This document shows, piece after piece, positions 5,101-35,776 of a stretch of 64,000 nt of DNA. The notes beneath the pieces are model-generated. The model was not told where the DNA came from. It did no database searches and saw only the letters and a list, made by a program, of their open reading frames with translations. Origin of the DNA: Raillietiella orientalis. Lineage: Eukaryota. Where the stretch lies: positions 1 through 64,000 of the forward strand of contig JAYWIR010000022.1 in assembly GCA_036172245.1 (NCBI GenBank), written 5' to 3'. The position numbers were made by a program, and so were the translations under genes. Within the stretch, counting starts at the first letter, position 1. Every line of letters starts with the position of its first letter.

Positions 5101-6652
5101 CCAGGAAGTCAAAGTCTGGGCGCAGCGCCTTCTACGCAAAGCGTTGTGGGGCGCTGCAAGATCCCGTGTTAGACTTAAAGACTTGGTGGCGCCGCGTCAG
5201 GATGCAGGCTTGGGCATCCTCGACTTAAACAGCATCGAACTGCAGGTGCAGTTTCGCATGCTGCGGCTCTGTGCCAAGCTGTGGTGTACGCCGTGGTGCT
5301 TACCCGCACGCCTTATACTGAGGCGCTGCACGGGAAGCGAGGGACTGCTTTCGTTGCTACCCCACTTTCGGCACACCAGAATAGGGTTTGGCTTCCCGCT
5401 GAGGCAGCTGTCCTCACTGCTGGAAGCCCAAAGCTGGATCTCCTGCCGCCCCATGAACATTAATGCATGGCGGCAGGAATCTTTTTCATCGTGGGCAGCT
5501 TCCGAAGGAACGCGCCTGGAAGATCTTCGACGCCTGCGACTTCTCCTCAGTCATCAAATGGACGAAGTCATGCAGGACAAGAAGTTGTCCGATCGTCTGG
5601 CCGCCACACCACTCGCCGCAGCGCTGTCTGCCTCCAGGGCAAGCAACGACGGTTGCCTACCGGCGGAATGGGAGTTCTCCTGCAAAATAGCGGGAGTCAG
5701 TAAGCTCCTCGGCAGCTGGACGACAAAGGAGCTGGTGCAAGCCGCCACACCTCGCAATCGGGCGAAGAGACTGCTTCGGTGGAGCGAACATTTAAGTGTG
5801 CCCCCCGGAGAGATAGTGGTTCCCCCCGTTTGTTTGGACAGCTCCGTGTTCCCCCTTAAATGGAAACAAGATGTGCTGCTCTTTTTACATTGTGCATTTC
5901 ACTGTAATAGCAGCGAAGCATCGTTTCCGGGGGAGCTGCTTTGCCAAACTGTTTAAGGTGCGGAGAGATCGAGTCTTTTCCGCACCTTTTGCTGGACTGC
6001 GGTGACCTCCGGGAACTGTGGCGAAGGCTCACTTCGGCCATCATGCCACAAGGAGGCACTGCCATTGATGTGCTGCGGCGCTTCTTCAGCAGAAATGGAC
6101 TTTCGGTTGGCGCGATTGTCGCAACCATGTGTTGCGTTCGCGCCATCGTGAAGGCCCGCTACGCCCTGGAGTTGTCATCGCAGCGAAGGGAGGCTCACCT
6201 GCTTGCAGCTCAATTCATGGAGAAGGCTTCAAGGTGGTCTCATCTTCGTGACAAGGTGAATGAGGACATCACCGGCATACATCGCCGGTTTACACACCTT
6301 TGAGAACGGCGTAATCCGGTGACCCCTGCGACCTCTCGCCCACCCATACCCCGTCCCCGTTCGCTCGGTAAAATTTCCGGTGCCCATGCTTTTATCCCCG
6401 TGTCTTCCAGAGCGATCCCAAAGACCCTTATCCCGTCCTCCTTATTCATTGTTTTTATTTTATTTTGGTTTCTTTGTGTTTCCCGCCCCCCCACACCGTT
6501 CAAGAAACTGTTACTCTGGCCTGCGTGCCAGCAATATTCTCTTCATTCTTGTTCAGTCGTCGGTTGGGAGTTTGGTTCCCAACTGGTTTATTTTGTATAA
6601 TTGCTTTTTTTCGTTATGTTATATGGAATAAACGCCCCGGCGTGACCGGGTG
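2106..6652 (+). mobile_element. 5'-truncated Tx1-like element (copy B): ORF1 C-terminus, disrupted ORF2, 3' UTR and hairpin end
   Basis: ORF1 2106-2732 ends SLSQP with a TGATG overlap; ORF2 pieces 2843-3730, 3788-4309, 4316-5956 and 5941-6303; terminal motif 6627-6652. Confidence 0.9.
2732..6303 (+). pseudogene. ORF2 (APE-RT-Cys/His) of copy B, with stops and frameshifts
   Basis: LQEIH, GDFN, SDH, WRPITLVN, DLQKAFD, GIRQGDSLSP, YADD, YLGV, CLRCGEIESFPHLLLDC. Confidence 0.9.
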
Positions 6653-8545
6653 AGAAATCTCCCGGGCTTGATCTGCGGAGATCACGTGGATCTCCTGCAG
6701 CAGCACCAGGTCGAAGGATGCCAGGGTGGCGGCCACGTCACGCCTCTTGCCGTCGTCGCTTAGCCCGTTCACGTTCCAACAGGCGATCAGAAGACGACGG
6801 CGAGAGGCGATTCCCGGCATTATGGCTGGGAAAGTGGCGTCGCGGCACCTGCCGCGGGGCAGGTGTAGGACAGGTCCATCGGTACGAGGACGGAGGCCTC
6901 TTCAGGCGCCTGGGGTACCTGTTCGGCCTCCATCCTCACCATCCCCTCCGTGTCCGAGCGTGGAATTCTCTCGGGCGACGGGTCCCGGGAGTTTCCCACG
7001 CTCATGGCACCCTCGCTACCGGAAGCCATCTCTTCCCCTTCGTCGCGGGAGACGATCTTCCGGGGCATTGTGGACTTTCGTCCAGCCTTTTTGCGGGGTG
7101 CCGCGGAGATGGATGCTTTGTTTCCGGCCTTCACCTCGGGGTCGGAAGAGGCCGACTCCTGAGGGGAAGCCGGACGCCTGACGGCCTTCTTGCCAGCCTT
7201 GAGGGGAACCGGCTGCAACGAGGCAGCCAGCTCCTCCGCGGCGCGCTCGAAGGCGACGTCATCGAGCGTGGGCTCGATGACGGACGCCGCCGCCTCGCTC
7301 CCCTCCTTGTTGACTTTGTCAACGGAGGGTTGAGCAGGGGCAGCAGCGAGTTCTTTAGCGCCGCATTCGTCGATGGCGGGAATCCGCTCTACAACGACGC
7401 AGCAGCTTTTAATTTTTTCGCGGCGCAGAGCGGTTTCGCTCCGTTTCGCCACGTTCTTTCCCTTCTTATGGGAGTTTTTCTTGGGATCGACCTTCTGCCA
7501 CCCTGGCTCTTGACCCTCGCCCTCGACCTTTTCGGCGTTTTTCGCCGGGGTCTCGGGGCTGGCCTTCGCCTTGGTGGCGGAAGTGACCTCCTTAGCAGCA
7601 GCACGAGCTGCCAGCTTTTTCCTCTTTTTAGCCGCGCGCTTTCTCGCGTTTTTCGCGGACACGACGCGGACTGTGTTTTGGGGGCACACCAGACGGGTGT
7701 GCCCCGCTTGTTTGCATTGCTGGCACTGCACGCTCGGACACCTCATTTTAAGGTGACCAAAGCTGCTGCAGCAGCCGCAAAACTTGGGTTTCCCCACGTA
7801 CCACACGTCAACGGATTCACCGTTGACGGTGAGTTTGTGGGGAACCTCACATCCCTCGCGAACCGTCACTCGCGCTGCACCCAGGCCGCCAAGCAACCCG
7901 TCGTAATCGACAAAAGGAGTAGGCTTTCCCCACAGCGCGTGGACAGTTGCGAATTTTTCCAATTCGTTCCGGACGGCCTCCTTCGTCATCCGGAACGTGA
8001 TACCGGTCAGGTGAATGATCACCGACCGGTCTTCAGTAATTGGGAGAAGCCTCCGGCTGCCCATAATTACGGGGGTTCGCAGAAGTCTCTGCGCAAGAGT
8101 TGCCTCCTTGCAGATAACTTCCACAAATTGACCCCCGCTTCTGACGGACATAGCCAGAAGCTCCTCTTTCTGTACGCCGAGAACGCGCATCGCCTGTGAG
8201 AAGGCGCGCGCGTTCTCGGGAGAATATAGACCGCCTACCTTATATAGAAGGGGTGGGTTATACCCCTCCTCCAGGTAAGCGCGCATTTCCGCCATAGCCG
8301 CTGGCGTAGGTGCCGCAGCCACGGCGTTCCAAGCCCTGGGTAGGGCCGGGGGCGCATCCGTGCTGGCGGGAGCCTCCACTGATGCGGGAGCCCCCACCTC
8401 CATCTGCTCCGGGGGCAATGAGGTCATCGCCCCCGGATCCTCACCGGTGGTGGTATCAGGCATTGCTGCCTAATCCTCCACCCACACCACGCACAAGCAC
8501 CAACGGAAATGGAACTCAGGAGCAACGAAAAGACACGTCCGCTCG
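6653..8545 (-). mobile_element. 5' half of a Tx1-like element (copy C): 5' UTR, intact ORF1 and start of ORF2
   Basis: GCGGACGTGT at 8542-8533; ORF1 8463-6820; ORF2 stub MPGIASRRRLLIACWNVNGL...LQEIH cut by the 3' end of copy B. Confidence 0.9.
6820..8463 (-). CDS. ORF1 gag-like nucleic-acid-binding protein, 547 aa (copy C)
   Basis: Two CX2CX4HX4C knuckles (CGCCSSFGHLKMRC, CQQCKQAGHTRLVC); stop overlaps the ORF2 ATG (TAATG). Confidence 0.9.
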   Translation of the reverse strand: MPDTTTGEDPGAMTSLPPEQMEVGAPASVEAPASTDAPPALPRAWNAVAAAPTPAAMAEMRAYLEEGYNPPLLYKVGGLYSPENARAFSQAMRVLGVQKEELLAMSVRSGGQFVEVICKEATLAQRLLRTPVIMGSRRLLPITEDRSVIIHLTGITFRMTKEAVRNELEKFATVHALWGKPTPFVDYDGLLGGLGAARVTVREGCEVPHKLTVNGESVDVWYVGKPKFCGCCSSFGHLKMRCPSVQCQQCKQAGHTRLVCPQNTVRVVSAKNARKRAAKKRKKLAARAAAKEVTSATKAKASPETPAKNAEKVEGEGQEPGWQKVDPKKNSHKKGKNVAKRSETALRREKIKSCCVVVERIPAIDECGAKELAAAPAQPSVDKVNKEGSEAAASVIEPTLDDVAFERAAEELAASLQPVPLKAGKKAVRRPASPQESASSDPEVKAGNKASISAAPRKKAGRKSTMPRKIVSRDEGEEMASGSEGAMSVGNSRDPSPERIPRSDTEGMVRMEAEQVPQAPEEASVLVPMDLSYTCPAAGAATPLSQP

Positions 8546-11500
8546 ACGCTCCGGAATCTCCAGGACTGGGACCTTTTTAAGGAATCGGTCCGGGAGTTCT
8601 GCGAGCAGTTCCCCCTGGACCGCCTGCCCTCCGGATTCGGCGAGGGTCCTCGCAACCATCGGGCCTATTTACAGGCCCGTAGGTACGAGCGAACCCCTAA
8701 TGTCCGTCGCCTGGCCGAGTACCGCGCCGGGGCCGAACGCCAAGCCTGGCAATCCGGGTCGGCCAGCTTGCTGGACGACCAGGGCCGGGAATGTTCGTCC
8801 CCGGCGTCGGTACGGCATCTCGTGCGGAGTTATTATTCCTCCCTTTACGCCAGGGCGCCCCCGGATCAAGATGCCTCTCGGCTCTTGCTTCCAGATGGTG
8901 CCGCGGCAATAGGGGAGGAGCAGTCGTTAAGCCTCGATGAGACTTTTACCACCGGCGAAATTCTCGCCGGTATGAAAAGGCTCAAGAGGCGGAAAGCCCC
9001 AGGGGAAGACGGCTTGCCCGCGAAGTTCTATTCGCGGAAGAGCTGGCACCCCTGCTGCTTCAGCTGACAAGGCTGATCCGAGACGAAGGCGATGTTCCCG
9101 CCTCGTTTCGGTCAGCCAGAGTGAGGCTCCTTCCGAAAGGGGGAGACCTTAGGAATTTGAACAACTGGCGTGCGATCACGATTGTGAATACGGACGCCAA
9201 GTTGGTTGCCGGGCTATGGGCTTCGCGTCTGGGGCAGGTGGCAGAATCCATAATTAGCCCGGAGCAGACATATGCTGTTCCCGGGCGAAGTATGGATGCC
9301 AACCTCTTCTTCGCGAGCACATGGATGCACGCGCAGAGGTGTCAAAATGAAGGGAAAGGAAAAATCGGCAACCCCACTTTGGGGCCGCCAACAGGGCAGG
9401 GAATGGACTCCCGGGCGTGGAGGGGGCCTTAGCGCTCGCAGTCGATCTCCATAAGGCGTTCCACTTTGTTGACCAGGGGCTTTTGTTGGAGCTCCTGGGT
9501 CGCATGGGCTTCCCACCCTCCTTGATTACCTACCTGAGCTCTTGCTGGCGGAATGCGATTATCTCCATCTTTTTCAGTAGTCAGAAGGTGTATGGCGTGC
9601 CGGTGAGGCGGGGCATCAGGCAGGGCGATAGCCTGAGTCCCCTGCTCTTCAGCACCTACTTTGAGTTGGTGCTGAGAGCCTACAGGGTGACTTTGGCCTC
9701 CTTGCCGAGCTCGTGTCCCGGCACGCCCGCCGTAGCAGCCTATGCCGACGACCTTCTGCTCCTGTTACCTATGTCCACCCCGGCAAAGGCGGTCGGAGAC
9801 TTCTTCGATCTGCTCAGCCGTGGGAGCGGACTGCAGGTCCACAGGGCGAAGTCGTCGGTGGTGCCAGTAGGTGCGGCGTGGGCAGGGCAGCAGGACTGGG
9901 TCCGTCTGGGGATCCCCACGGCGAGGTGCCTCAAGTACCTTGGTGTGCCGTTGGGTGACCACTCCCCTGCGGAAGCGTGGTCCAGCTGTCTTCAAAAAGT
10001 TGAGACGGCGATCGGCCCGTTACTGGAAGGCAAGTTTCACTTGCCGGAACGGGCCGCGGTTTGGTACGCTTTTGCGGCCCCCATCCTCCGCTTCTTGCTT
10101 TTTGTTTGCCCCGCCCCCAGAGAATGCAAAAAGAGGACAAAGGACCTCCTCCGCATAGCCCTTTGGGGCAAGGGGAGGCCCCGAGTCCCTCTGAAGGACT
10201 TGTGCGCTCCACGTCGGGACGGCGGCCTAGGCCTCCTGACGCTGGAGCGCGTGGAAATCCAGCTGCGGTGGCGAACCCTCGCCATCGCAGCGAAGATGTG
10301 GAGCACCCCTTGGTGCGTTCCGGCCCGCCTCCTCGCCAGGCGTGTGTCTCGATGCGAAGGACTCGCGTCGTTTCTTCTGCGCCCTGGCCGGAAGATCCGA
10401 AGATGCGGCCTTATGCTCGGACGCATAGCAACCCTGGCGAAGACGAACGGTTGGATGGTTTGTGGCCCCGCCAACTCCTCCGCCTGGTTGGAGGAGTCTG
10501 CTGGCACATGGGCTAAGCAGAACCGGAGGAGTGAAAACAATATGAACTGCCTGCGAACCGGCCCATAAGCCAACCGCACCCTGCGGGAAATACTGGAATT
10601 TCCCAGGAGTCGCAGGTGGGCGTTGACGACCCCCCTTACTACGGCGATGCCCTACCTCCTGAGGGCGCTTCAGGATCGCCAGAAGCCGAGGTGGCAAGTC
10701 ACCTGCCAGATCGCAGGCAGGGAGAAGATGTTAAGCGGCTGGACCACAGGAGAACTGGCGGACGCCACGACCCCGAGCGTCCAGCCGCGTGGATTGATGA
10801 GATGAGGCGAGCTGCTTGCCATCCCTACGGATGTGCTGAAGTGGCCCCCGGTACTGAAGGAATCCAGGATCCTGCCCCTTAAGTGGCAAGAGTCGGCGTT
10901 GCTACTGTTGCACTGGGGTTTACCCTGCAACGCACGCCGCTTCCACTGGACAAGGGGAGCTGTGGATCCTGAGTGTGTCAGGTGCGGAGAGCGGGAATCG
11001 CTCTCCCACCTTATTGTGGACTGTGCTGCCATCCGACCCCTCTGGGAACGGTTCGGGGCGACCCTCGGGCTCCCTACGGGCAGCACCCCCAGAGACGTTC
11101 TTCGGTCCCTCTTCGTGAAGGACGCACTGCAGCCAGCCGCAGCCATCGCAGCCTTTTAGCTGTGTCTGTGGCATCGTGACGGCATGGAGCGACGCCAATA
11201 ACGAAGGAGTGGGTCCACACGCGAGGGATGTCATCCCATACGCCCAACGCTTCATGCGGAGAGCTGCCGGATGGCCCCAACTGGGGAATATACGAACGGA
11301 CCTCGAGGGCTTCCTTCAACGGATGGGCCCTCCTCACAGCGTTTAGTGATCCCTTCCCTGCCCTCCAACTTCTTTTTGTCTGTTTATTTTTTATTTTTCT
11401 TTTTGTTTTATCCCCATCCCTCTTCGCTGCTGAGGAACGCTACGCTGGGCTGCGTCCCGGCGTCCTGGCAGGTCCAGTGTATATGGCCGTGAGCGGGGCC

Positions 11501-11547
11501 TTGTACCGCGGATGTAGAGTTTTAACAATAAACGCCCCGGGCGTACC
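8546..11547 (+). mobile_element. 3' part of a Tx1-like element (copy D): disrupted ORF2, 3' UTR and hairpin end
   Basis: RT motifs in 9121-10568 (DLHKAF, GIRQGDSLSP, YADD); CVRCGERESLSHLIVDC; terminal motif 11527-11543. Confidence 0.9.
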
Positions 11548-14500
11548 CGGGTGTAAACCTCCAAGGCTAACAAAAAGGCAGTTAGGCGTCCGGCCTCCAC
11601 CGAGGGGTCCGTAACTTCCGACCCCGAAGGGCAGGCCGGAAACCAAGTTTCCATCTCCGCGGCACCCCGCCGGAAGGCCGGAAGGAAGTCCAGCAAACCC
11701 TGGAAAGCCCCTCTCCAGGCCGAAGGCGTGGAGATGACTTCCGACTGCGAGGGTGCCATGAGCGTGGGAGAATCCCGGGAATCGTCACCCGAGAGACCAC
11801 CACGCACAGACACGGAGGAGATGGAGGGGGTTGAAGCCAGAAAGGTACCCAAGGTGCCTGAGGAGGCCGAAACCCTAATGGTCATCTCACCCGCCTCGGA
11901 AGAGGCGGGTTCCCCCACACCGTCATCTTCCCGGCAGTAATGCCGGGAATCTGCTCCCGCCGTCGTCTGCGCATCGCCGTTTGGAACGTTCGTCTGAATC
12001 CGGATGGGCCGAATCACGAGCGGGACCTGGTCAACGAGGTGTGCGCGGCGGTGCACACCTGTAATTTGTTGGCCAGTGTACCAGGGATGGAGGACAACAT
12101 CGATCACGTGTTCCTTGACGAGCATCTGTGCACTCGTGTGGGCAGGCGCTGCAAGTTACCGTGCGAGTTGTCCGACCATCGACCAATCGTGATTGAAATC
12201 CTTCCGCGCGACAAGGGACCGCCCTCGTCAGCGTGGCGTTTGCCAGGGGACTGGCTGAAGCTCCCGGACGCGACGGAACATCTCCGCACGTTTATACGGA
12301 GCTTCAGGATGCAGACACTCCAGGATTGGGACCGCTTCAAACGGTCGGTCCAGGAGTTCTGCGACCAGTTCCCTCTGCACCGGCTACCTGCGAGATTTGG
12401 GGACGGGGTACGTAACGAACGAGCCTATCTGCAGGCTCGCCGTTACGCCAGGACCCCCGACATCCGCAGACTGGCGGAATACAAAGCGGGAGCCGAGAGG
12501 CAAGCCTGGCAGTCAGGATCGTCCAGCTTGCTGGACGATCAGGGCCAGGAGCATTCGGCACCCGCTCAGATCTGCGGTCTCCTGCGGCGTTTTTACTCCT
12601 CCCTGTACGCAAGAACGCCTCCCGAGCGGGATTTCTCACGACTCCTGCTTCCGAAAGGCGCTCCTGCGATCGGGGAAGAGGAGAAAAAGTCCCTCGACGA
12701 GCCTTTCACGATGGGCGAAATCATCTCGGCCATCGGAAAGCTCAAGAGGCGCAAGGCTCCAGAGGAGGGCGGCCTGTCCGCGGAGTTTTATCAAACTTTC
12801 GCGGCTGAGCTAACCCCCCTGGTACATCAACTCACCTTGCTGATACGCGAGACAGGTGACGTTCCCGCCTCGTTTCGTTCGGCAAAGGTGCGGCTTCTCC
12901 CTAAGGGAGGAGATCTGAGGAGCATGAACAACTGGCGTCCCATCACTATAGTGAATGCGGATGCCAAGTTGATAGCTAAGGTTTGGGCTGAGCGCTTGGG
13001 ACGGGTTGCAAACGCCTTCATCAGCCCGGAACAGACGTATGCTGTTCCGGGGCGAAGCATGGAGGCGAACCTGTTCCACGCTTCCATCTGGCTAGAGCTC
13101 CAACACGAAAGGGGCTTGATGCGCACCGGGAATTCTGGTGAGTCCGTCAGCCATGCGACGGATGGTCGGATGGGGGAGGCAGCACTTGCGGTCGCTGTGG
13201 AATTGCGTAAAGCATTCGACAGCGTCGACCAGAATCTCCTGCTGGAGCTTTTGGAACGCTTGGGCTTCCCGGCCTCATTATTGGCCTATCTGCGCTCTAG
13301 CTGGCGCGATTCACAAATCAATGTTACTTTCAGCGGGCATACAGTTGACGGCGTGCCGGTGCCACGTGGGATCCGGCAGGGAGACAGCCTGAGCCCCTTG
13401 CTCTTCAGTACCTACTTTGAGTTGGTACTGAGAGCGTACAGGGAAACTCTGGCGCACCTGCCGCATGAATGCGCCGGAACGCCTGCGGTTTCAGCATATG
13501 CGGACGACCTTCTGCTACTGCTCCCTATGTGCACCCCGGCTTCGGCGGTCGAGTTCTTCGACCTGCTGAATCGAGGAACCGGGCTTACGGTAAACAGGGC
13601 GAAGTCGTCCGTGATGCCAGTTGGTGCGGCGTAATCAGGGCAGCAGGACTGGGTCCGTTTAGGGAACCCCACGGTGAGGTACTTCAAGTACCTTGGTGTG
13701 CCGTTGGGGGACTACTCCTTTGCGGAAGCGTGGTCCGGCTGCCTTCAAAAAGTGGAGACGGCTATCGGCCCGTTCCGAGGCGGCAGGTTTTTCCTGCCTG
13801 AACGGGCTGCGGTTTGGAACATGTTCGCGGCTCCTCTCCTCCGTTCCCTGCTTTTTGTTTGCCCCCCCACAGAGAGGATCAAAAAGCGGACGAAGGACCT
13901 CCTCCGTATCGCCTTTTGGGGCAACGGGAGGGCCCGATTCCGCTTAAAGGACTTGTGCGTTCCGAGTCGGGACGGTGGTCTCGGCCTCCTGACACTGGGG
14001 CGGCTGGAGCTGCAGCTCCATTTCCGGATTTTGGCACTTGTGCCGGAGATTTGGTGCACCTGTTGGTGCGTCCCTGCACGTCTCCTCCTTCAGCAAACCA
14101 CCGGCAAGACGGGAGTTACGTCGTTTCTTGCACTCTATCGAAGCCGCATCAACCGATGTGGGCTTCAGCTACGGAGGGTGGCTGCGCTGGCAAGGAAAAA
14201 TCAAGGATGGATCACCTGTCTCCCCGCGAACGGTAGTGCCTGGTTGCAGGAAACCGTTCGTACGTGGGGACAGTTCGGTATGCAACCCTCCCATCAGGAA
14301 CGAAGGTTCCTGTTTGGGTGTTACAGAAGTTGCACGCTCCGTGAGATCCTGAAGGATCCTAAGAAGAAAGCGTGGTCAGGAAGAACCCCCCTCGCTGCTG
14401 CGCTGGACTCCCTAGTGGAACATCAGGACAGCGATGTTGCGGCGAAGTGGGAGGTTACAATAAAAATCTCCGGTAAGGAGAAGAAGCAGAGAGAGTGTAA

Positions 14501-15311
14501 GACGGGCCAGCTAACTGATGCTGCGACCCCGAGTACGCCTCCTAATGGACTTCTGCTCTGGGGAGCGCTGCTGGGTGTTCCGATTGAACATCTGAAGTGG
14601 CCCCCGGTTCTTATGGACACTTTGATCCTCCCCCTTAAATGGCAAGAGTCGGCATTCCTGTTGCAGCACTGGGGAGTCCCCTGCAACGCCCGTCGACACC
14701 ACTGGACCTGGGGAGCGGTGGATCCCAATTGTGTAAGGTGCGAGGAACGGGAGTCCCTCCCCCACCTCCTAGTGGATTGTGTTGCCCTTCGGCTCCTTTG
14801 GTTCCGCTTTGTCGCGGTCATAGGTATCCCTTGCGGCAACCCCAGGGACGCACTGAAAGCCTTCTTCGTTGCCGACGCCCTCCGGCCAGCGTCCTCGATA
14901 GCAGCCTTGTGTTGCCTTCGTGGGATCTTTGCCGCATGGAGCACGGCGACGGGAGGACCTAGCGATCAGGACGCCATCCAGTGCGCCTCCCAATTCCTAA
15001 GGAGGGCGTCGCGATGGCCCCACCTGGATGTTCACAACAAACAAGAGCTTGCCAGAATCCTGAGAGGGATGATGCGGCCCCAGCAGCATCAGTGATCCCT
15101 TCCCGTTCCCTCCCACCCTTTGTTTCTTTTTGTTTAGTTTTTTGTTTTCCTTCTTTCCCCTGCTGCCTTGGTGGACCGTACCGGTTTAGAAACCGGTAAA
15201 TTGGCAGGCTCCGTGGTTCTTCGCTTCTGGCTGGAGCATTGCAACAGCCAGAAATAATTTGTTTATCAAGTTTATTTTTTAATAAACGACCCGGAGAAAT
15301 CCGGGTGAAAA
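11548..15311 (+). mobile_element. Tx1-like element (copy I): ORF1 C-terminus, ORF2 with in-frame APE deletion and a premature stop, hairpin end
   Basis: TAATG at 11938-11942; ORFs 11940-13634 and 13674-15095; terminal motif 15281-15307. Confidence 0.9.
15281..15307 (+). terminator. Conserved 3'-terminal AATAAA plus hairpin motif of the Tx1-like family
   Basis: AATAAACG-ACCCGGA-GAAA-TCCGGGT-G; homologues at 6627, 11527, 18434 (-), 24508, 33147 and 35749. Confidence 0.75.
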
Positions 15312-15570
15312 TCGAATGCTTTCCGCAAGTCGATTGCGACCGCAAGGGCTCCCTCCCCCACTCGACCATCCGACGCCTTGCCGGCGCACGGTCCGGAATT
15401 TCGGCTGCGCACCAAGCTCCTTTCTTGTTGGTGCTCTAGCCAGGTGGAAGCGTGGAACAGGTTCGCCTCCATGCTTGGCCCGGGAACGGCATATGTCTGT
15501 TCCGGGCTGATGAAGATGATAGCAACCCGTCCCAACCTCTCTGCCGAAACCTTAGCTAGCAACTTGGCGT
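15312..15570 (-). mobile_element. Internal RT fragment of a Tx1-like element (copy J)
   Basis: AKLLAKVSAERLG...SPEQTYAVPG...AIDLRKAFD on the minus strand. Confidence 0.85.
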
Positions 15571-19065: not shown

Positions 19066-19140
19066 GGTCAGACGTGTTCTCTGCGCGCTCCTGACTCGCT
19101 CGACTTTATTGGTGTAGTGCGGTGCATCAGTGGTCGGGGG

Positions 19141-24549: not shown

Positions 24550-26796
24550 TGTTGCCACTTCATGGGGAGGGTGCGCGAGTCCATGAGCAGTGGGGGCCAC
24601 TCGAGATGTTCCTCTGCAACATCCAGTAGCTCTCACAAGCGCAACAGTCCATTTGGGGTGGTCCTCGGGATCGCAGCGTTGGTGAGCTGACCCGTTCTCC
24701 AATCCCCGATCTTCTTTGCCCTTCTGGCGATCTTGACAGTAACCTCCCATTGTGCCGCGACGTCGCTGCCCAGATGTTCCCGTAGGGTAGGCAGTACCGC
24801 AGCAAGGGAGGTTCTTTGCGCCCACGCTCTCCTTCGGGGATCCTCGATGATTTCTCGGAGCGTGCGGTGGGCATGCGGCCCGAACAAAGCTATTCGCTCG
24901 TGTTGCGGGCTCTGCTCCTGAATCATCGCCCACGCGCGCACGGTTTCCTGCAGCCAGGCAGGACCGTTCGCGGGGCGTACGAGGATCCGCGCCGAGTTGT
25001 TCTTGACGAGCTTCGCCGCCCTCCGAAGTTGAAGTCCGCAGTGGCAGATGGGGCTTCGGAGTGCAAAGTAGGACGAGAGTCCCGCATTGCCGGTGGCCCG
25101 CTCGACGAGGAGACGTGCAGGGAGGCACCAAGGGGTGCACCAATTTTCTGCCATAAAGGCAACAACTCGGAACTGGAGCTGTAGCTCCAGCCGCTCCAAC
25201 GTCAGGAGGCCCAGACCACCATCCCGACGAGGAGCGCACAAGTCCGAAAGACGGACTCGGGGCCTCCCTCTGCCCCGAAGGGCGATCCTCAGGAGGTCCT
25301 TCGTCCTCTTCTTTGACTCCGCTGAGGGGGGGCAAACAAAAAGCAAGGGGCGAAGGAGGGGTGCCGCAAACGCGTTCCACGCCGTAGCCCGTTCCTGCAA
25401 GTAGAACCTGCCGTCCTGGAACGGGCCGATCGCCGCCTGAGCCTTCTGAAGGCAGCCGGACCACGCTTCCGCAGGGGAGTAGTCCCCCAACGGCACACCA
25501 ACGTACTTCAAGTACCTCACCGTGGAGATCCCCAAACGGACCCAGTCCTGCTGCCCTGCCCACGCCGCTCCGACTGGCATTACGGACGACTTCGCCCTGT
25601 TCACCGTCAGTCCTGTTCCACGACTCAGCAGGTCGAAGAAGTCCTCGACCGCCGAGGCCGGGGTGTACATAGGCAGCAGCAGCAGAAGATCGTCCGCGTA
25701 CACCGAAACCGCAGGCGTACCGGGACAATCGCACGGCAGGTGTGCCAGAGTCTCCCTGTACGCTCTCAGCACCAATTCGAAATAGGCGCTGAAGAGCAAG
25801 GGGCTGAGGCTGTCTCCCTGCCGTATGCCGCGTCGCACCGGTACGCCGTACACGGTGGATCCACTAAGAAAAACGTTAATAAGCGCGTCGCGCCAGCTGG
25901 AGCGCATGTAGGCCAGCAAAGAGGCCGGGAAACCCAAGCGTTCCAGAAGCTCCAAAAGGAGATTCTGGTCGACGCAATCGAATGCTTTATGCAAATCGAC
26001 TGCGACTGCGAGAGCTCCTCTCCCCTCCCGACCATTTCGTCCCCCACCGACGGACGCACCGGAATTCCGGTTGCTTATTATGCTCCTTCCTTGTTGGAGC
26101 TCTAACCATGTGGAAGCGTGGAACAGGTTCGCCTCCATGCTTCGCCCCGGAACAGCATACGTCTGTTCCGGGCTGAAGGCGTTTGCAACCCGTCCCAAGC
26201 GCTCAGCCCAAACCTTAGCTATCAACTTGGCATCCGCATTCACTATAGTGATGGGACGCCAGTTGTTCATGCTCCTCAGATCTCCTCCCTTAGGGAGGAG
26301 CCGCACCTTTGCTGAACGAAACGAGGTGGGAACGTCACCTGTTTCGCGGATCAGCAAGGTGAGCTGATGTACCAGGGGAGTAAGCTCTGCCGCGAAAGTT
26401 TGATAAAACTCCGCAGGCAAGCCGTCCTCCCCTGGAGCCTTTCGCCTCTTGAGCTTTCCGATGGCCGAGAGGATCTCGCCCATCGTGAAAGGCTCGTCGA
26501 GGTTCCTTTTCTCCTCCTCCCCAATTGCTGGAGCACCTTCCGGAAGCAGGAGTCGTGAGACAGCCTGCTCCGGAGGCGCCCTGGCGTACAGGAAGGAGTA
26601 AAATTTCCTCACTATCCCGCGTTTCTGAGCGGGAACCGAGTGCTCCCGGCCCTGGTCGTCCAGCAAACTGGCCGACCCGGATTGCCAGGCTTGCCTCTCG
26701 GCTCCCGCTCGAAACTCTGCTAACCTGCGCATGTCGGGGGTTCTCGCGTAACGTTGGGCCTGAAGATAGCATCTTTCGTTACGCGGCCCCTCCCCA
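24538..26796 (-). mobile_element. RT-containing middle part of Tx1-like copy F
   Basis: 699-aa ORF 26732-24633 with WRPITIVN, DLHKAFD, GIRQGDSLSP, YADD. Confidence 0.9.
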
Positions 26797-29700
26797 ACTC
26801 CCTCTCCTCGAGAGCGGACGTGTTGTTCCGGCGCTCCGCCAACGAGCAGCGGAAAGCGGTTTTTTTGGGTTCAGTGTGTGCTTTTTCACATCGTTGGTGT
26901 CCGATGGCATCGCTGCCAGAGGACACCACGATGGAGGTAGGCGTGAGCGAGGCTAGCCCCCCCCACGACCTACAGAATCAGGGGCATCCGCCCCGGAATC
27001 GCCCTTGTCGCCCAAGACGAGGAGCTGGAGCGCCATGGTCGCCGCGCCGAGCGCGGAAACCTTGGCTGAGCAAGCGGCCTACAGGGCCTCCGGATATAAA
27101 CCATCCCTGGTTTATAAGGTAGGAAACCTCTTCGACGGTCGCACCGCGCGTGCCTTTAGCAAGGCACTACAGGAATTCCCCGTGCGTGAGGAGGATCTTG
27201 ACGGCCTCGCCGTACTCAGCGGGGGGCAACGCCTGGAGGTCGTCTGCAAAGACGTAGCCCTAGCGCAGCGCCTCATCAACACCCCGCTGAATGTGGCTGG
27301 CCGAAAGATCCTACCCGTTAGCATGGACCGCTCCGTAGTGGTCCATCAAACGGGGATCACGAACCGCATGACGCGCTCTGCGGTGAAAGCGGAATTGAGG
27401 AAATACGGAGATGTGCACGCGCTGTGGCCAAAGCCAACCATTTTTGACGGCTATAACAGCCTCTTTGGTGGCCAGGCAGCAGCGCGTGTCACTGTGAACG
27501 AGGGTGCTGGGTTACCCCACAAACTGGAGATCAAGAAGGAGCCCGTCGACCTCTGGTACGTGGGGAAACCCCGCTATTGTGGCTACTGCGATACAGTAGG
27601 GCATGTGCGCAGGCGGTGCCCGAATATCGAGTGCCACTTGTGCGGGGAAAAGGGACACGTCCGTCGTGTGTGCCCTAAACGCCCCACCCCGGTGCCACCT
27701 GCTGCCAAAAAGGCACAGGCGAAAAAGATGAATAAGGTCGAAAGACCTCATCGCGAGAATGGCCGGCCCCAGCAGCCTTCTCCTCCTCCTCCAACCGAGG
27801 CGGCGGCGGAAAAAACCGCGAAAGACGCGGGCGAGGAAGAAGGATGGACCCTGGTAAAGGCCAGAAAAGAACCCAAAAAGGGTTCACAAGAGAAGGCGGA
27901 GAAAAAGACGGTCGCGAAGGCGGAAAAACCTGTCCCGCGATCTAAAACTCTCCGCGAGTGCTCGGTAGCACTGGAGCGCATCAGCGTTCCCGAGGCTGCC
28001 ACTCGGGGCGACGAGCCTCCCTTCGCCGTTTCCGCCGCGCCCGAGGTTCGCTACGGCGAACCCTCTGTTTGCACAGAGGGTGAGACGCGCGACGCGCTCG
28101 CCGCCGGCGAGGACGCCGCCTCCGCGAAGGCGGCGGAGGAGCTCGCGGCCACGCTGGCTGAGCGTGAGAACCCCTCGCGCAAGGCCGTGCGAAGGCCGGC
28201 TCCAGTAAAGAAGGCCCCCGCAGGTGAGTTAGAACTGGGGGCCGGAAGTACATCCTCCTCCTCGGAGGCACCCCCCGGAAGACGGGACGCAAGTCCCAAA
28301 AGCCGAGGAAGCGCCTCCCCTCCACGAGCGAGGAGAAGCAGGAAGTCGCCGGCAGCGTGGGAATCCCGGAGGGGGAGCTCCCACGCGCGGAAGCCGTCGA
28401 GCAGGACACCCCCATGGAGGAGGGTGAGCAGGGGGGCGAAATCCTCCCTGCCGTCGCGAATCCTGAAGACCCCACCCTATGGAGGAGGGCCAGCAGGTAG
28501 GCGCGACCCCACCTGAGGGTGAACCGCCCGACGCGCCGTCGCCGATGGAAGAGGGTGGCCAGGTGCTAGAGGCACCTGTCCCTCCTCCTCCACCTAGCGT
28601 CCCGCCCCAACAGGTGGCGGACGCCGCACAGCCGATTTCCCAGGAATAACACCTGGGCTCGCCTGTCGCCGTCGAATCCGCGTGGCCAGTTGGAACGTCA
28701 ACGGGCTGCGCGACGACGGCAACAGACGAGATACGGCCGACACCCTGCGTGACTTCGACCTGGCCCTGCTGCAGGAGATCCACGTGATCACCTCGGCAGA
28801 CGTCCAGGAGATCGAGGCGATCGCGGGGGGTCGACTGTATTGGCGATGCGGCGCCCGCAACACCTGCGGGGTCGCGTTCTTCGTCAAGCCGGCCATCGAC
28901 GCTGCCGTGAAGGGCGTACGCTTTGATGACGACGGTCGGGTCGGTCAGCTGATTCTCAGCTGGTCCGACTCGATCGAATTGATCGTCACGAACGTGTACG
29001 CCCCGAGCGGAAAAGGGGGATACAGCGACCGTACCAGGCTGCTGGAAACCCTGAAGCGCGATTGGCTGGCCGACACGAATGTGCGGAAGGCACACCTGAT
29101 AGCTGGAGACTTCAATCTCCGTCTGCTGTCAGGTGAGCCCGAAGCACAAGAACGCACGGCCAACGAGTTGTGCGCTGCCATGCGCACGCGCAACTTGTTG
29201 GCAGACGCGGAGGGAATGGACCGCAGCATCGACCACTTCTTCCTGGATGTCGACCTGTGCTCGCGGGTCGGCAAACGGGGAAAAGTTGCGTCGACGCTGT
29301 CGGACCATTCCAGGATCATCGCCGAGGTTTGCCCGCGCGACAAAGGACCCCCGTCCAGGGCGTGGCGGCTGCCTGGGGACTGGACGCGGCTCTCAGGTGC
29401 GAAAGAACACCTTCGCGAATTCCTGAGAGGCGTCACCCTCCGCAGTCTCCAAGACTGGGACCTCTTCAAGGCCTCGGTCCGCGAGTTCTGCGAGGAGTTT
29501 CCCCTGCACCGCCTGCCCCCCGGATTCGGGGAGGGGGCTCGGAACCATCGGGCTTATCTACAGGCCCGCCGGTACGAGAGGACCCCGAATGTCCGTCGCC
29601 TCGCGGAATATCGAGCCGGGGCCGAACGCCAAGCCTGGCAATCCGGGTCGGCCAGCTTGCTGGACGACCAGGGCCGGGAGCGATCCGCCCCACCCGCGAT

Positions 29701-32327
29701 CAGGCACCTCGTGCGACGTTATTACTCCTCCCTCTACGCTAGGGCACCCCCAGAGCGGAACGCCTCGCGGCTCCTGCTCCCGGATGGAGCCCCGGCAATA
29801 GGGGAGGAGGAGATCAGCCTCGACGAGCCTTTTTCTACCGGTGAAATTCTCGCCGGTATTAAAAGGCTCAAGAGGCGAAAGGCGCCAGGGGAGGACGGCC
29901 TGCCTGCGGAATTCTTTCAATGTTTCGCGGCAGAGCTGGCACCCCTGGTGCTTCAGTTGACCGGGCTGATCCGAGACGAAGGCGACGTTCCCGCCTCGTT
30001 TCGGTCAGCCCGTGTGAGGCTCCTCCCGAAGGGAGGAGACCTGAGATCCTTGGGCAATTGGCGTCCGATCACAATCGTGAATACGGACGCCAAGCTGATC
30101 GCTGGACTGTGGGCTTCGCGTCTAGGACAGGTGGCAGACTCCATAATTAGCCCGGAGCAGACGTACGCTGTTCCCGGGCGAAGTATGGATGCCAACCTGT
30201 TCTTCGCGAGCACATGGTTCCATGTGCAGCGCTGCCTGAACGACACAGGGGGAAAGATTGGCAACCCCACTTTGGGACCGCCAGCTGGGCTGGGAATGGA
30301 TACCCGGGCTGGGAAGGGAGCCCTAGCGATCGCGGTCGATCTCCACAAGGCGTTCGACTGCGTAGACCAGGAGCTACTGTTGGAGCTCCTGGGTCGCATG
30401 GGCTTCCAACCCTCCCTTCTCTCCTACCTGCGCTCATGCTCGCGCAATGCCATTGTCAACATCGTCTTTTCCAGCCAACAGGTGTACGGCGTGCCGGTGC
30501 GGCGGGGCATACGGCAGGGCGATAGCATCAGTCCCCTGCTCTTCAGCACCTACTTTGAGTTGGTGCTGAGAGCGTACAGGGTGACTTTGGCTGCCCTGCC
30601 CAGCTCGTGCCCCGGCACGCCCGCCGTTGCAGCATACGCCGACGATCTTCTGCTCATGTTGCCCATGTCCGCCCCGGCAGCCGCAGTCGAGGATTTCTTC
30701 GACCTGCTAAGTCGTGGGACTGGACTGCGGGTAAACAAGGCAAAGTCGTCGGTCGTACCGGTGGGTGCGACGTGGGTCGGACGGCCTGACTGGATCCGCT
30801 TGGGGATCCCCACGGCCAGGTACCTGAAGTACCTGGGTGTCGCGTTGGGGGACTTCTGCCTCGCAGAAGCCTGGTCAGGTCGTCTCCAGAAGGTAGAGTT
30901 GGCAATCGGCCCGTTCCTGGAAGGCAAGTTCCTTCTGCCGGAACGGGCCGCGGTGTGGAACGCCTTCGCGGCTCCCATCCTCCGCCCCCTGCTTTTTGTG
31001 TGCCCCGTCCCCCGTGACATTAAAAAGAGGACAAAAGACCTACTCCGCATCGCCCTCTTGGGCAGCGGGAGGCCACGTGTGCCTCTGGATGATTTATGCG
31101 CTCCTCGTCGGGACGGCGGTCTCGGCCTCCTGACGCTGGAGCGCCTGGAAATACAGCTGCGATGGCGCACCCTCGCCATCGCAGCAAAGTCATGGAGCAC
31201 CCCTTGGTGCGTTCCGGCCCGAATCCTCGCCAGCCGTGTGTCCAGGACGCAAGGACTCGCGTCGTACCTTCTGTGCTCCGGCAGGAAGGTGAGAAGATGC
31301 GGCCTTCTTCTTGGGCGCATGGAAGCCCTGGTCAGAGACAACGGCTGGACGGTATGCAGCCCCGCCAACTCCTCCGCCTGGCTGGAGGAATCAGTTGCGA
31401 CTGGGCCAAGCTGAACCTCCAGCCTTCCCCGGAATGGAACCGCCTGCGATTCGGCCCCAACGCCTGCTGAACACTGAGGACTACTATGGAGTGTCCCCCC
31501 AGTAGCACGTGGGCGGAGACTACCCCTCTAGCTTCGACCCTGCCCTTCCTTCGATGGGCTTTAACCAGCGGCCGTACGCCAAAGTGGCAAGTCTCCTGCC
31601 GAATCGCAGGCAAGGAAAAGAAGATGAGCGGTTGGACCATGGGAGAACTGGCAGATGCCACGATCCCGAGTGCCCTCCCGAGTGGACTTCGTAGATGGGG
31701 CGAGCTGCTCGGCATCCCGACGGATAACCTGAAGTGGCCCCCAATATTAATGGGATATAGGCTTCTCCCCCTGAAGTGGCAAGAATCGGCGCTGCTGCTG
31801 TTGCACTGGGGTCTACCCTGCAACGCGCGCCGCTTCCACTGGACGCGGGGAAGTGTAAGGCCTGAGTGTGGCAGGAGTGGGCAGCGGGAATCGCTCACCC
31901 ACCTTCTTGTTGACTGTGCTGCCCTCCGACCCCTGTGGGAACGGTTTGGGACGACCCTAGGGCTCCCTACGGGCAGCGCGCCCAGTAACGTTTTCCGCCT
32001 CCTCTTCGTGCGGGGCGCCCTGCAGCCAGCCGCAGCCGTGGCAGCATTATGCTGCACCCGTGGCATCCTGGCGGCGTGGAGTGATACACGCGACGAAGAT
32101 GTGGACCAGAACGAAAGGGACGTCATACCGTATGCTGTTCGCTTCCTGACGAGAGCTTCTGGATGGCCCCAGCTGGGTACAATTCGGATGGACTTAAAGA
32201 GCTTCCTTCGAAGGATGGGCTCTCCTCCCAGTGCAGAGTGATCCCTTCCCAGCCCACCAACTTCTTTTTGTTTTCCTTACTTTTTATTTTTCTTTTTGTT
32301 TTCTCCCCCATCCCTTCCACTGCCGAG
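26797..32327 (+). mobile_element. Near-full-length Tx1-like element (copy H) with truncated 3' UTR
   Basis: 5' motif 26814-26823; frameshifted ORF1 26904-28649; ORF2 28682-31414 plus 31486-32241. Confidence 0.9.
28649..32241 (+). pseudogene. ORF2 of copy H; APE-RT open for 910 codons, disrupted near 31400-31470, no AUG at the homologous start
   Basis: All APE and RT motifs present; ACA occupies the position of ATG in other copies. Confidence 0.85.
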
Positions 32328-32818
32328 GCTGCGTCCGTTAGCTCCCAAGTCGTCCACGCCTTTAATGGTTTTCTCCTGCCTCGGATGAGGCACGACACTT
32401 CCCACGATGCCCGCTCGTTGCTGCTCCTAATGTTTTTCAGGGAGGACAGAACGGGGGCAAGGGGGGTAAAAGAAGCCCACAGAAACTTCCGGGGCGTGTT
32501 GATAATCTCCTGCAGCCCTATCGAGCGTACGGTCCTCGACGTAGGCAGTTGTATTCCGCCTCGCTCGTGCCGTTGACCTTAGCCCACGCGGAGACTGACT
32601 CCTGAAGCCAGGCAGTGCAGTTCGCGGGGAGGCAGGAGATCCATATATTCTCCCTCATGAGGGCGACCTTCTGGCGCAGATGGAAGCCAGACTTGTTGCA
32701 GAGGCTGCGCTGGTAGGCCACGAGGATCGAGGACAATCCTTCGCAGTCGGTCGCTCTTCTGGCGAGGAGCCGAGTCGGTACGCGCCATGGCGTCATCCAT
32801 AAGTTAGCCGCTAGGGCT
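32328..32818 (-). mobile_element. Inverted ORF2 C-terminal fragment (copy K)
   Basis: TPWRVPTRLLARR...WISCLPANCTAWLQES...WTTWELTDAA, homologous to the post-RT region. Confidence 0.8.
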
Positions 32819-32819: not shown

Positions 32820-33178
32820 GCTTCCGAAATGTAATTTGAGAGGGACGTCATCCAGCACGCAGTACACTTCTTGCGGAGAGCTGCCCGATGGCCCCATCTG
32901 GGAAGTATGCGGACAGACCTCGAGGGCTTCCTTCGACGGATGGGCCCTCCTCACAGCGTCCGGTGATCCCTTCGCTGCCCTCCAAACTCTTTTTGTTTGT
33001 TTATCTCTTTTATTTTTCCTTTTGTTTTTCCCCCATCCCCTATCGCTTTCGGGGAGTGCAACGCCGGGCTGCGTCCCGGTGTCCCGACAGGTACCGTGTC
33101 TAAGGCCGCAGTGGGTCCTTATACCACGAATTATAGAGTTTTTTCGAATAAACGCACCGGGCGTACCCGGGTGGCAAC
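32820..33178 (+). mobile_element. 3'-terminal fragment of a Tx1-like element (copy L)
   Basis: Similar to 11220-11543; terminal motif 33147-33173. Confidence 0.85.
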
Positions 33179-33179: not shown

Positions 33180-35776
33180 CAAATCCCTCTTGTGGTGAGC
33201 GGACGTGTTTTTCCTTCGCTCCGCCTGCGTGGCAAGAGGAGCGTTCCTTATTTGTGTGTTCTGTGCGTTCACATCGTCGGTGTCCGATGGCTGCGCTGCC
33301 AGAGGACACCGCGATGGAAGTAGGCGTGGAGGACGCTAGTTCGCCCCTACAACCTACTGGATCAGGGGCATCCGCCCCAGAATCGTCCCCGCTGTTACAG
33401 ACGAGGACTTCGAGTTCCATGGTGGCAGCGCCTAGCGCCGAAGCCCTGGCGGAACAAATGGCCTACCGGGCAGCAGGGTATAAACCCTCGCTGATATATA
33501 AGGTAGGACCATTATTTGATGGGCGGACTGCACGCGCCTTCTCGAAGGCGCTGCAGAACGCAAATATTCGGGAGCATGATCTTGACGGCCTCTCCGTCCT
33601 CAGCGGGGTCAGCGGGTCGAAGTGGTATGCAAAGATATCACCTTGACCCAACGCCTGATCACCGACCCGCTGATCGTTGATGGTCGGAAGATCTTGCCGG
33701 TGATGATGGACCGCTCTGTAGTGGTCCATCTCACCGGGATCACCAGCCGCATGACGCGGTCTGCGGTTGGTGAAGAATTGAAGTTCGGGGAGGTACACGC
33801 GCTGTGGCCAAAGGCCAGTCTTCGACGGCTACAATAGCCTTTTCGGGGGGCAGGCCGCCGCGTGTGTGACCGTGAACGAGGGTGGAGCGCTACCTCACAA
33901 GCTGGACGTCTGCCAAGAGCCGGTAGACCTCTGGTACGTGGGTAAACCCCAATTTTGTGGATACTGAAATGCAGTAGTGCACCTTCGAAAGATGTGCCCG
34001 AATATATTGTGCCACCTATGCGGAGAAAAGGGCCACGTGAGACGCGTATGCCCGAAGCGCCCCATCCTGGTGCCACCTGCTGCCAAAAAGGCGCAGGTGA
34101 AAAAGGCGAAGGTCGCAAGACCGAAAGTTGAAAGTGGCCAGCGGAAGCTGCCAGGACCTCAACCTCCGGCGAAAAAGTCGGAGGAACAACCCTCCGAAGT
34201 GATGGAGGGGGAGGAGGGCTGGCAGCTTGTAAAGGCCCGTAAAGAGCGGAAGGTTCCTCACGAGGAACCAGAGAAAGCGGAGAAAAAGAAGAGCCGAAGC
34301 CGAAAAAACCCGGTCCGCGATCGAAAACTCTCCGCGAGTGCACGGTGGCACTGCAATGCATCGTCGTTTCCGAAGCTGCCATCCGGGGCGACGAGCCTCC
34401 CCTCGCCGTTTCCGCTGAGCCCGAGGTTCGCGACGGCGAACCCTCTGTTTGCTCAGAGGGTGAGCCGCGCGACGCGCAAGCCGACAGTAAGGACGCCGCG
34501 TTCGCGCAGGCGACGAAGGAGCTCGCAGCCACGCTGGCCGAGCGTGAGAACCCCTCGCGCAAGGCCGTGCGAAGGCCGGCTACGGCAAAAAAGGCCCCCA
34601 CAGGTGAGTGCGACCTGAGCTCATCCTCCTCCGCGAACGCACCCCCCAGGAAGTCGGGACGCAAGTCCCATAAGCCCAGGAAGCGCTTCCCCTCCACCAG
34701 CGAGAAGACGGAAGTCGTCACCGGCGTGGGAATCCCGGAGGGGGAGCTCCCACGCTCGGATGTCGTCGAGCCGGCCACCCCCATGGAGGAGGGTGAGCAG
34801 GGAGGCGAAGTCATCCCTGCAGTCGCCGATCCTGAACAGCCCGTCCCCATGGAGGGCCACCAGGTAGGCGCGACCGCACCTTAAGGTGACCTGCCCGACG
34901 CGCCACAACCAATGGAGGGGGACCAGGTGCCCTCAGCACCCCCCTCCTCCACCTAGCGTCCCGCCCCAGCAGGTGGCGGACGCCGCACCCCCAATTTCCC
35001 AGGATTAGCACCTGGGCTCGCCAGTTGCCGTCGGATTCGCGCGGCCTGTTGGAATATCCACGGGCTGCGCGAAGACGGCAACAGGCGAGATACAGCCGAC
35101 ATTCTGCGTGAGCTTGACCTGGCAAGAGTCGTCGTTCCTACTATTGCACTGAGGTTTATCCTGCAACGCACGCCGCTTCCGCTGGACGAGGGGAGCTGTG
35201 GATCCTGAGTGTGCCAGGAGTGGGCAGCGGAAATCGCTCACCTACCTTATTGTGGACTTTGCTGCCCTCCGACCCCTGTCGGAACGGTTCGGGACGACCT
35301 TCTAGCTCCCTACGGGCAGTACCCCCAGAGGCGTTCTCCGGCTCCTCTTCGTGAGGGACGCCCTGCAGCCCTTGCAGCCCCGTGCTGCGTACGAGGCATA
35401 GTGGCGGCCTGGAGCGACGCCAACAGCGAAGATCGGGACATGAACGAGAGGGAAGTCATCCCGTATGCAGTAAGCTTCATGCGGAGAGCTGCGAGATGGC
35501 CCCAACTGGGAAGCATGCAGAAGGACCTCAAGGACTTCCTCCGACGGATGGGCCCTCCTCGCAGTGATCTGTGATCCCTTCCCCTCCCTCCAAACACTTT
35601 TTGTATTTTTGATCTTTTCTTTTTCTTTTTTTGTTTTGTCCTCCATCCCTTTTCCCTGCTGAGGAGTGCTACGCCGGGCTGCGTCCCGGCAGGTCCCGTG
35701 TAAATGGCCGTGAGTGGAGCCTTGTACCACGTATTGTAGAGTTTTTACAATGCCCCGAGCGTACCCGGGTGGCAAC
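33180..35776 (+). mobile_element. Internally deleted Tx1-like element (copy M) retaining both ends
   Basis: 5' motif 33199-33208; decayed ORF1 33287-35008; ORF2 jumps from the APE start to WQES near 35120; degenerate hairpin 35749-35771. Confidence 0.85.

Follow-up and report, generated by a model that had tools for sequence, protein, structure and literature searches.

Hairpin-bearing tails, apparently of the stringent type, are the norm among the long interspersed nuclear elements (LINEs) of the L2, CR1, RTE and R2 clades. Stringent-type LINEs are described as needing a 3' stem-loop that is bound by the product of their second open reading frame (ORF2) (PMC4176376). Within the L1 clade, a maize and sorghum lineage is reported to carry a 3' hairpin with compensatory changes and conserved loop and flank bases, read there as stringent recognition, and the Chlamydomonas L1-1_CR is listed as sharing its tail with a short interspersed nuclear element (SINE), SINEX-3_CR (Ohshima; PMC3747384). 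In the account of human L1 ORF2p, a C-terminal segment holds the template stem-loop next to poly(A) and helps to set the start site (PMC10830416), while the L1 3' untranslated regions (UTRs) of lizard, frog and fish are described as having C-rich and T-rich polypyrimidine tracts followed by AATAAA (PMC5381506). Here, we analyzed an apparently L1-like LINE family in the first 64 kb (positions 1 to 64,000, hereafter the window) of contig JAYWIR010000022.1 of Raillietiella orientalis, whose copies end in AATAAA and a GC hairpin and lack a poly(A) tail. An earlier note on this DNA had taken 3' stem-loops to belong mainly to other clades, a premise that the plant, algal and human L1 cases make dated.

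All seven preserved 3' ends of the family carry AATAAACG, a GC hairpin of 16-17 nucleotides (nt), GGGT(G/T) and NNAA, with the hexamer degraded in copy G (Table 1). The earlier note had reported a shared hexamer and GC hairpin at these seven sites, from 6627 to the degenerate 35749, and each of them was verified; the end of copy B, given there as 11543, in fact runs to 11553 (GGGTG) or 11557 (tail). Within the window, AATAAACGNNCC has six exact matches versus a mean of 0.11 in 100 shuffles, none of which reached six, and an nhmmer profile built from the seven ends recovers those sites and no other in the 64 kb at E<1. A looser 14-mer with up to two mismatches gives eight matches versus 4.5 expected and, as 13 of 100 shuffles also reach eight, is not significant alone. 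No partner SINE sharing the tail was seen in the 64-kb window, where nhmmer finds LINE ends only. The distance from the start of AATAAA to the last base is 29-30 nt in all five elements with an intact terminal hexamer for which spacing was tabulated, and F2, outside that set, has the same spacing by its coordinates. The element end therefore lies 23-24 nt past AAUAAA, which is itself 2 nt ahead of the hairpin; 23-24 nt is the usual distance between a poly(A) signal and its cleavage site. Outside the cluster of copies, an older, CpG-poor relic combines a distant ORF2 C-terminus (26% identity) and a C/T-rich UTR with CCGAATAAAC and a weak 4-bp hairpin, GTTC...GAAC. Given this relic, the tail layout may be older than the GC-rich lineages.

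A 3' poly(A) tail, the usual criterion for the L1 clade, was found at none of the seven ends, where runs of A never exceed four, and the DNA copies stop 4-6 nt after the terminal stem. Copy E, which is bounded by a perfect target-site duplication (TSD), terminates in GGGTGTAAA, that is, GGGTG-TAAA. At the junctions of the other copies the flank is itself a LINE fragment, and the start of the target was read by alignment to intact copies. The tails defined by homology in this way are AGAA in A, TAAA in B (at most 8 nt), AA to AAAA in C, TCAA(GC) in D and at most 12 nt in F2 (GCAAC...), so that the tail measures 2-8 nt in the five tightly defined copies (A, B, C, D and E), the flank of G being undefined. 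The claim of the earlier note that few bases and no real poly(A) follow the hairpin is thus borne out by the TSD of copy E and by the homology-defined junctions. The invariant AA is preceded by UA, CA, GA or AA, and the bases at the ends would fit cleavage after an A, with only one to three tail residues then being copied. At the five defined junctions, the nicked strands end in ...GAT, ...AGG, ...CGA, ...CTC and ...GCT, none of them T-rich, and share only 0-1 nt of microhomology with the tail, which argues that priming is not reliant on poly(A):oligo(T) pairing. The five insertions into family copies are antisense to the target or, for B, at its 5' edge. As a side observation, the antisense cases are A in M1, C beside a minus-strand reverse transcriptase (RT) fragment, D in the 15.6-18.4 kb copy, and E and F in D (6657, 15311, 18402, 19054-19065 and 26801), and this self-insertion of the family extends over about 43 kb with no common target sequence.

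We read these ends as a structured, "stringent-type" 3' tail in an L1-like LINE, in which AAUAAA sets the RNA end and RT starts beside the hairpin, and we regard this reading as about evenly balanced between right and wrong. In the mechanism that we infer from the sequence, the RNA polymerase II transcript would be cleaved, and probably polyadenylated, about 23 nt past AAUAAA, which is 2-4 nt beyond the terminal GC hairpin. ORF2p would then bind the structured tail at the terminal hairpin and the invariant CG...GGGU that flanks it, and probably at an upstream hairpin with a CUGCGU loop as well. Once bound, the protein would begin target-primed reverse transcription at a set position a few nt 3' of the terminal hairpin, an initiation that would need no annealing of poly(A) to a T-rich nick. 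A fixed start point of this kind would leave DNA copies that end in ...GGGUG-NN-AA with four A or fewer. The earlier note had proposed the hairpin as a cis signal for RT recognition or 3'-end formation; with a conserved block at the extreme end and no poly(A), this stays the natural reading, but covariation in the terminal hairpin does not support it in the way that was argued (see below).

The copies diverged as active lineages. Between copies, ORF2 has a ratio of nonsynonymous to synonymous substitution (dN/dS) of 0.06-0.22, with dS of 0.46-5.5 (at least 0.9 in 9 of 10 pairs) and saturated synonymous sites (proportion of differences, pS, of 0.53-0.75 in 9 of 10 pairs). Between lineages, identity is 74% over the final 31 alignment columns, as against 41% over the remaining 3' UTR, 23% over the flanks and 53% over the last 300 nt of ORF2, the terminal block of 31 columns being the best-conserved nucleotide stretch at the 3' end of the element. 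An identity of 74% versus 41% beside saturated synonymous sites indicates that the block is under selection. It could be held, on the contrary, that the block is functionless, and that the copies share it through recent common descent or because recombination or template switching passed a single 3' module between lineages, considering that all copies sit in one cluster and that L1 lineages exchange UTR modules. We consider this highly improbable, since the synonymous sites are saturated, a recent swap would have carried along the neighboring bases of the adjacent UTR in addition to a block with invariant cores, and the loop and tail differ between lineages.

RNA structure is selected in this 3' UTR. 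Although the earlier note described the 3' UTRs as otherwise divergent, they share a layout, with a conserved start, UGAUCCCUUCC, followed by a C-rich and then a T-rich tract, an outer helix (P0) around the hairpin SL1, one or two SL2 hairpins, SL3 (in A, C, D and E) and the terminal hairpin. The SL1 loop is CUGCGU in five copies, CUGCGC in D and UAGA in C, while the stem shows two-sided changes at seven of its eight pairs, with variants such as CUGGC/GCCAG, GCCGGG/CCCGGC, UACCGGUU/AACCGGUA and GGGAGC/GCU-G-CCC. LINE tails that are bound by protein have been described with this combination of a conserved loop and a covarying stem (PMC3747384, PMC4176376). Taken jointly, P0, SL1 and the terminal hairpin have 81.6% of their cells paired versus 33-55% when the partners are slid by 1-3 columns, and none of 500 shuffles reached the observed covariation score. 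Tails of 135 nt also fold better than their shuffles in A, C, D and E (z of -3.3, -4.8, -2.5 and -4.5, respectively). SL2-type hairpins occupy equivalent positions with unrelated sequences in A, C and D relative to E; as the MAFFT alignment does not bring SL2 and SL3 into register, they are described from per-copy folds only. The pairing of AAUAAAC with GUUUAUU, for which three examples are given in Table 1, would occlude the presumed poly(A) signal and is absent from the B/F2/G lineage.

For the terminal hairpin itself, each copy can form a GC stem of 5-7 bp with a loop of 4-5 nt, at -8 to -13.9 kcal/mol for segments of 27-31 nt. Several observations nonetheless weigh against the structured-tail reading. 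Dinucleotide shuffles are beaten by copy C alone (z -3.95), the other six segments lying at z -0.2 to -1.8, and the 135-nt tails of B, F2 and G are not significant either (z -0.9, -1.0 and -1.6). Among the seven terminal pairs (alignment A1), three are invariant, three depart through unpaired cells only (in E, G and A) and one changes on both sides. The stem carries mismatches in G (G to A) and in E (inner stem, G to T), which is the youngest copy as judged by its perfect TSD. The minimum-free-energy fold pairs AAUAAAC with the upstream GUUUAUU in four of seven copies, which is odd for a freely accessible poly(A) signal. Finally, the sample comprises seven copies of about five lineages from a single 36-kb cluster. 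The two-sided change (columns 214-219) turns G-C, present in four copies, into A-U in copy C only, alongside a loop change from CGUA to GAAA. Compensatory variation of the closing pair had been claimed in the earlier note; the change in copy C is true, but it is a single event at one of seven pairs, and E and G are mismatched. Covariation, which had also been proposed there as a check and which was run here as a pair count, is therefore thin in the terminal hairpin (1/7) and strong in SL1 (7/8). In addition, the runs of C and G leave room for an outer helix in a slipped register, ACGCCC/GGGUGU, in which the invariant CG and UG would be partners. With one covarying pair in one copy and one significant fold among seven, sequence conservation is inseparable from structure in the terminal hairpin.

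Much of this would suit a block conserved as primary sequence (AATAAACG, the CC run and CCGGGT) and read as single-stranded RNA or as DNA, for instance by ORF1p or ORF2p or in second-strand synthesis, with the CCCGGG palindrome being incidental. Besides the three invariant stem pairs, the flanking CG and GGGU vary little or not at all, the mismatches in E and G are tolerated, slipped registers are possible in the C/G runs, and six of seven segments fold no better than shuffles. However, copy C has altered both arms and the loop and still forms a 7-bp stem free of mismatches, closed by a GAAA loop, and has the best fold of all, every copy retains either a GC helix of at least 5 bp or the outer helix, and the neighboring hairpins clearly evolve as structures, and we thus find a purely primary-sequence role improbable.

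The fixed spacing bears on another possibility, namely that the hairpin serves mainly in 3'-end formation or stability. It could fix cleavage without a downstream element in the flank, or it could shield a short-tailed or non-adenylated end in the manner of the histone stem-loop, with RT starting at whatever RNA end it is given. The constant 29-30 nt from hexamer start to element end (5/5), a hairpin that occupies exactly the spacer between signal and end, and an end located 4-6 nt past the stem would all fit, as histone mRNAs end 4-6 nt after their stem and a LINE cannot depend on downstream elements in flanking DNA. Yet no Rfam family, the histone 3' stem-loop included, matches any of the 3' ends at gathering score or E<=5, and histone stem-loop kinship was dropped for that reason. 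In addition, a normal spacing of 23 nt needs no 17-nt hairpin, the conserved covarying upstream hairpins would be left unexplained and, with normal polyadenylation, something must still keep RT off the tail. On balance, we judge a role mainly at the RNA end to be unlikely. As for the structured-tail reading, its strongest form would be that an L1-superfamily lineage, probably of an animal, kept or regained fully stringent recognition, with a four-hairpin 3' UTR module and one fixed start nucleotide, independent of poly(A) length and of target complementarity; we put this forward tentatively, as a possibility that falls clearly short of probable.

The assignment of the family relies on its coding content. 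ORF2 has an N-terminal APE endonuclease (PF03372; E of 4e-18, 1e-14 and 1.8e-12) followed by RT (PF00078, up to 1.8e-21), and a CX2CX7HX4C pattern is readable in the C-terminal domain of A, B, C, D and E and degraded in F and G, with zf-RVT matches in ORF2 of 23.0 and 20.9 bits, under the Pfam cut-off of 27.5. ORF1 has two CX2CX4HX4C (CCHC) knuckles in three of the four copies read, copy E among them, and one in the fourth; the vertebrate-type ORF1p (Transposase_22, PF02994: coiled coil, RRM and C-terminal domain) was not matched at E<=0.1. Against solved structures, ORF2 best matches human L1 ORF2p (E 2.8e-46), with R2 at 1.5e-14. An exhaustive protein search gave 33,269 matches, of which just two unnamed fragments, P0001 (68%) and P0019 (71% over 132 amino acids), exceed 37% identity; the nearest named proteins are 22-28% identical, the best of them being from turtle (27-28%), and a protein atlas comparison gave generic APE-RT clusters alone. 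By its APE-RT-Cys/His ORF2, the element is probably an L1-like LINE of the L1 clade in the broad sense (L1/Tx1 group). The five defined insertion sites differ in position and sequence, all of them inside family copies, and there is thus no single target sequence of the Tx1 type. Relatives were also searched for elsewhere: a pattern scan for the ORF2 C-terminus gave 80 matches and no relatives among metagenome contigs and 31 matches and no relatives among genome contigs, and a search of metagenome contigs with a 3' DNA motif found 33 loci, of which none had LINE homology by tblastn. As the similarity of those 33 loci to the 3' UTRs is confined to the searched motif, they were judged unrelated chance matches. 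One sequencing run (0.19 of the sampled words) has short contigs of mixed identity that span the copy A junction, and these gave no usable set of additional family 3' ends.

The copies form a nested pile of one family that fills the window from base 1 to about base 43,000, with element boundaries resolved by tblastn and self-blastn within the window (Table 1) and LINE fragments of greater divergence extending to about 43 kb. The cluster has about 60% GC and a CpG observed/expected ratio (o/e) of 0.91-1.10, whereas the rest of the window is AT-richer (39-48% GC), with a CpG o/e of 0.51 and a TG/CA excess at 57-64 kb; the compositional break is sharp at about 43,000, the flank dropping to 39% GC. 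The LINE copies have escaped CpG decay or have had too little time for it, and the CpG-poor flank suggests a CpG-methylating, probably animal, host. Each copy carries one or a few lesions and no CpG depletion which, together with the low dN/dS, points to fairly young insertions from several old lineages that were active concurrently. A cluster like the Zepp centromeric ones of green algae was considered and dropped, given the 39% GC and 0.51 CpG o/e of the host flank and the absence of an algal protein match. At their 5' ends, full-length copies have in common the motif G(C/T)(G/C)GACGTGTT...CGCTCC, which in copy E begins 5 nt past the TSD and may be a promoter or initiation element; a pairing of the 5'-terminal motif GCGGACGTGTT with the 3' motif, seen by eye over merely 5-6 nt, was judged to be chance. 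The copy starting near 15570 has 5.5 units of a 24/48-bp tandem repeat in its 5' region or ORF1 N-terminus, encoding TTPLKK-like peptide repeats.

Table 1. Coordinates of the LINE copies, their 3' features and neighboring sequences in the window
Feature	Position	Strand	Basis or description
Element 1, bearing end A	about 2694-6656	+	tblastn, self-blastn
M1	about 6657-8545	-	tblastn, self-blastn
Copy B, 5'-truncated	about 8546-11557	+	tblastn, self-blastn
Copy C	11560-15311	+	tblastn, self-blastn
5' part of a further copy	about 15570-18402		tblastn, self-blastn
Copy D, cut in two by copy E	18405-19053 and 24538-26801	-	tblastn, self-blastn
Copy E, full length, 5472 bp	19066-24537	+	5' UTR, ORF1, ORF2 (one frameshift), structured 3' UTR
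Copy F, 3' end lost	26802-32328		tblastn, self-blastn
F2, 340 bp, 5'-truncated	32838-33177	+	tblastn, self-blastn
Copy G, internal deletion	33180-35775	+	tblastn, self-blastn
3' end A	6627-6656	+	AATAAACG, stem CCCGG/CCGGG, loop CGUGA, UG, tail AGAA; target homology from 6657
3' end B	11527-11557	+	stem CCCGGG/CCCGGG, loop CGUA, UG, TAAA
3' end C	15281-15311	+	stem ACCCGGA/UCCGGGU, loop GAAA, G, AAAA
3' end D	18405-18434	-	stem CCCGG/CCGGG, GGGUU replacing GGGUG, tail UCAA
3' end E	24508-24537	+	inner stem disrupted by G-to-T (CCCCTG); GGGTGTAAA abuts TSD
3' end F2	33147-33177	+	tail GCAA
3' end G	35749-35775	+	AATAAACG reduced to AATG, one A-C stem mismatch, tail GCAA
Copy E TSD, 5' copy	19054-19065	+	AGCAGTGCCGAC, perfect 12 bp
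Copy E TSD, 3' copy	24538-24549	+	AGCAGTGCCGAC, perfect 12 bp
SL1 of B	11442-11463	+	ACGCUGGG-CUGCGU-CCCGGCGU
SL1 homologue, A	6513-6534
SL1 homologue, C	15178-15199
SL1 homologue, D	18509-18530	-
SL1 homologue, E	24406-24427
SL1 homologue, F2	33061-33082
SL1 of G	35671 to about 35690		end by direct reading; alignment gap truncates at 35687
SL2a, SL2b and SL3 of copy E	24437-24514	+	SL3: GUUUAUU... with ...AAUAAAC
AAUAAAC/GUUUAUU pairing, example	15254-15287
AAUAAAC/GUUUAUU pairing, example	18428-18447	-
AAUAAAC/GUUUAUU pairing, example	24491-24514
5'-terminal motif	19066-19085; 26802-26830; 33199-33215; 15570-15590; 8528-8545 (-)
Tandem repeat, 24/48 bp	15734-15865
Relic with related tail layout	58790-59398	-
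Putative Rep relic	43999-45067	+	Viral_Rep, PF02407, E 2.6e-15
RT fragment	45223-46241	+	PF00078, E 4.9e-16
Open frame, 509 codons	61797-63326	+	35-38% GC

Beyond the cluster, one reading frame matches the circovirus-type Viral_Rep and is followed by another with a P-loop-like GNAGKTT; the first appears to be a Rep relic of an endogenous CRESS-DNA virus, adjacent to the LINE cluster. The RT fragment adjoining it belongs to a different, AT-richer non-LTR element. Further on, a long open frame that is unlikely by chance in such AT-rich DNA had no Pfam match and no homologue in two protein searches, and could be one large exon from an unsampled gene of the host. Scans of the window found no tRNA and no Rfam family.

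How L1-type RTs choose template and start site is an open question, with poly(A) reading (relaxed) on one side and stem-loop reading (stringent) on the other, and structures of human ORF2p show contact with both a hairpin and an A tract. The present family would offer a natural test case for the switch between these modes, for why L1 mobilizes cellular mRNAs and stringent LINEs do not, and for RTs that start at a defined nucleotide. Should the hairpin be only a 3'-end device, the interest would be less, although it would still help to annotate elements without an A tail.

The stringent LINEs, namely eel UnaL2 and zebrafish ZfL2-1 and ZfL2-2 of the L2 clade, R2 and SART1, resemble the family in their extreme-3' stem-loop, in having no long poly(A) and no need for a T-rich target, and in the conserved loop on a variable stem that is seen here in SL1 (as described in PMC4176376 and PMC3747384). 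They differ in belonging to other clades and, as far as their description goes, in having no AAUAAA by the hairpin and in ending with short tandem repeats such as TGTAA (PMC3747384), whereas the family here is L1-like, with AAUAAA 2 nt before the hairpin and a non-repeated NNAA end. Tail binding and the requirement for it are reported as experimental for the UnaL2/ZfL2/R2/SART1 group, while the case made here is from sequence only. Closer by clade are the maize/sorghum lineage and L1-1_CR, which are likewise L1-clade elements with the last 45-80 nt or so conserved (PMC3747384). There is no sequence kinship to these plant and algal cases, as the family's proteins are at most 37% identical to anything beyond the two unnamed fragments, and L1-1_CR and most plant L1-clade LINEs are described with poly(A) repeats at the end, partner SINEs also being known; here the ends carry no poly(A), and no SINE partner was seen in the window. 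Hairpin tails in the L1 clade are thus already known from plants and algae, but those elements, together with the ones of the L2, CR1, RTE and R2 clades, have either poly(A) or short repeats at the end and no adjacent AAUAAA, and no search was aimed at L1-like elements without poly(A).

In vertebrate L1, the polypyrimidine tracts and AATAAA match the layout of the family, but a poly-A tail follows AATAAA in all species of that study (PMC5381506), where here there is the hairpin and 2-4 A instead. Human ORF2p, as described with the Alu stem-loop and poly(A), requires a long A tract and spans the distance from stem to active site with about 15 nt of single-stranded poly(A) (PMC10830416), as opposed to the 4-6 nt that follow the stem here; so short a distance implies a differing protein-RNA geometry, a non-polyadenylated RNA or a very short tail. 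If the fully stringent form of our reading were true, the family would give a direct handle on the choice of initiation site by L1-type enzymes, and would stand as a natural intermediate between the stringent LINEs and the poly(A)-reading L1 of mammals.

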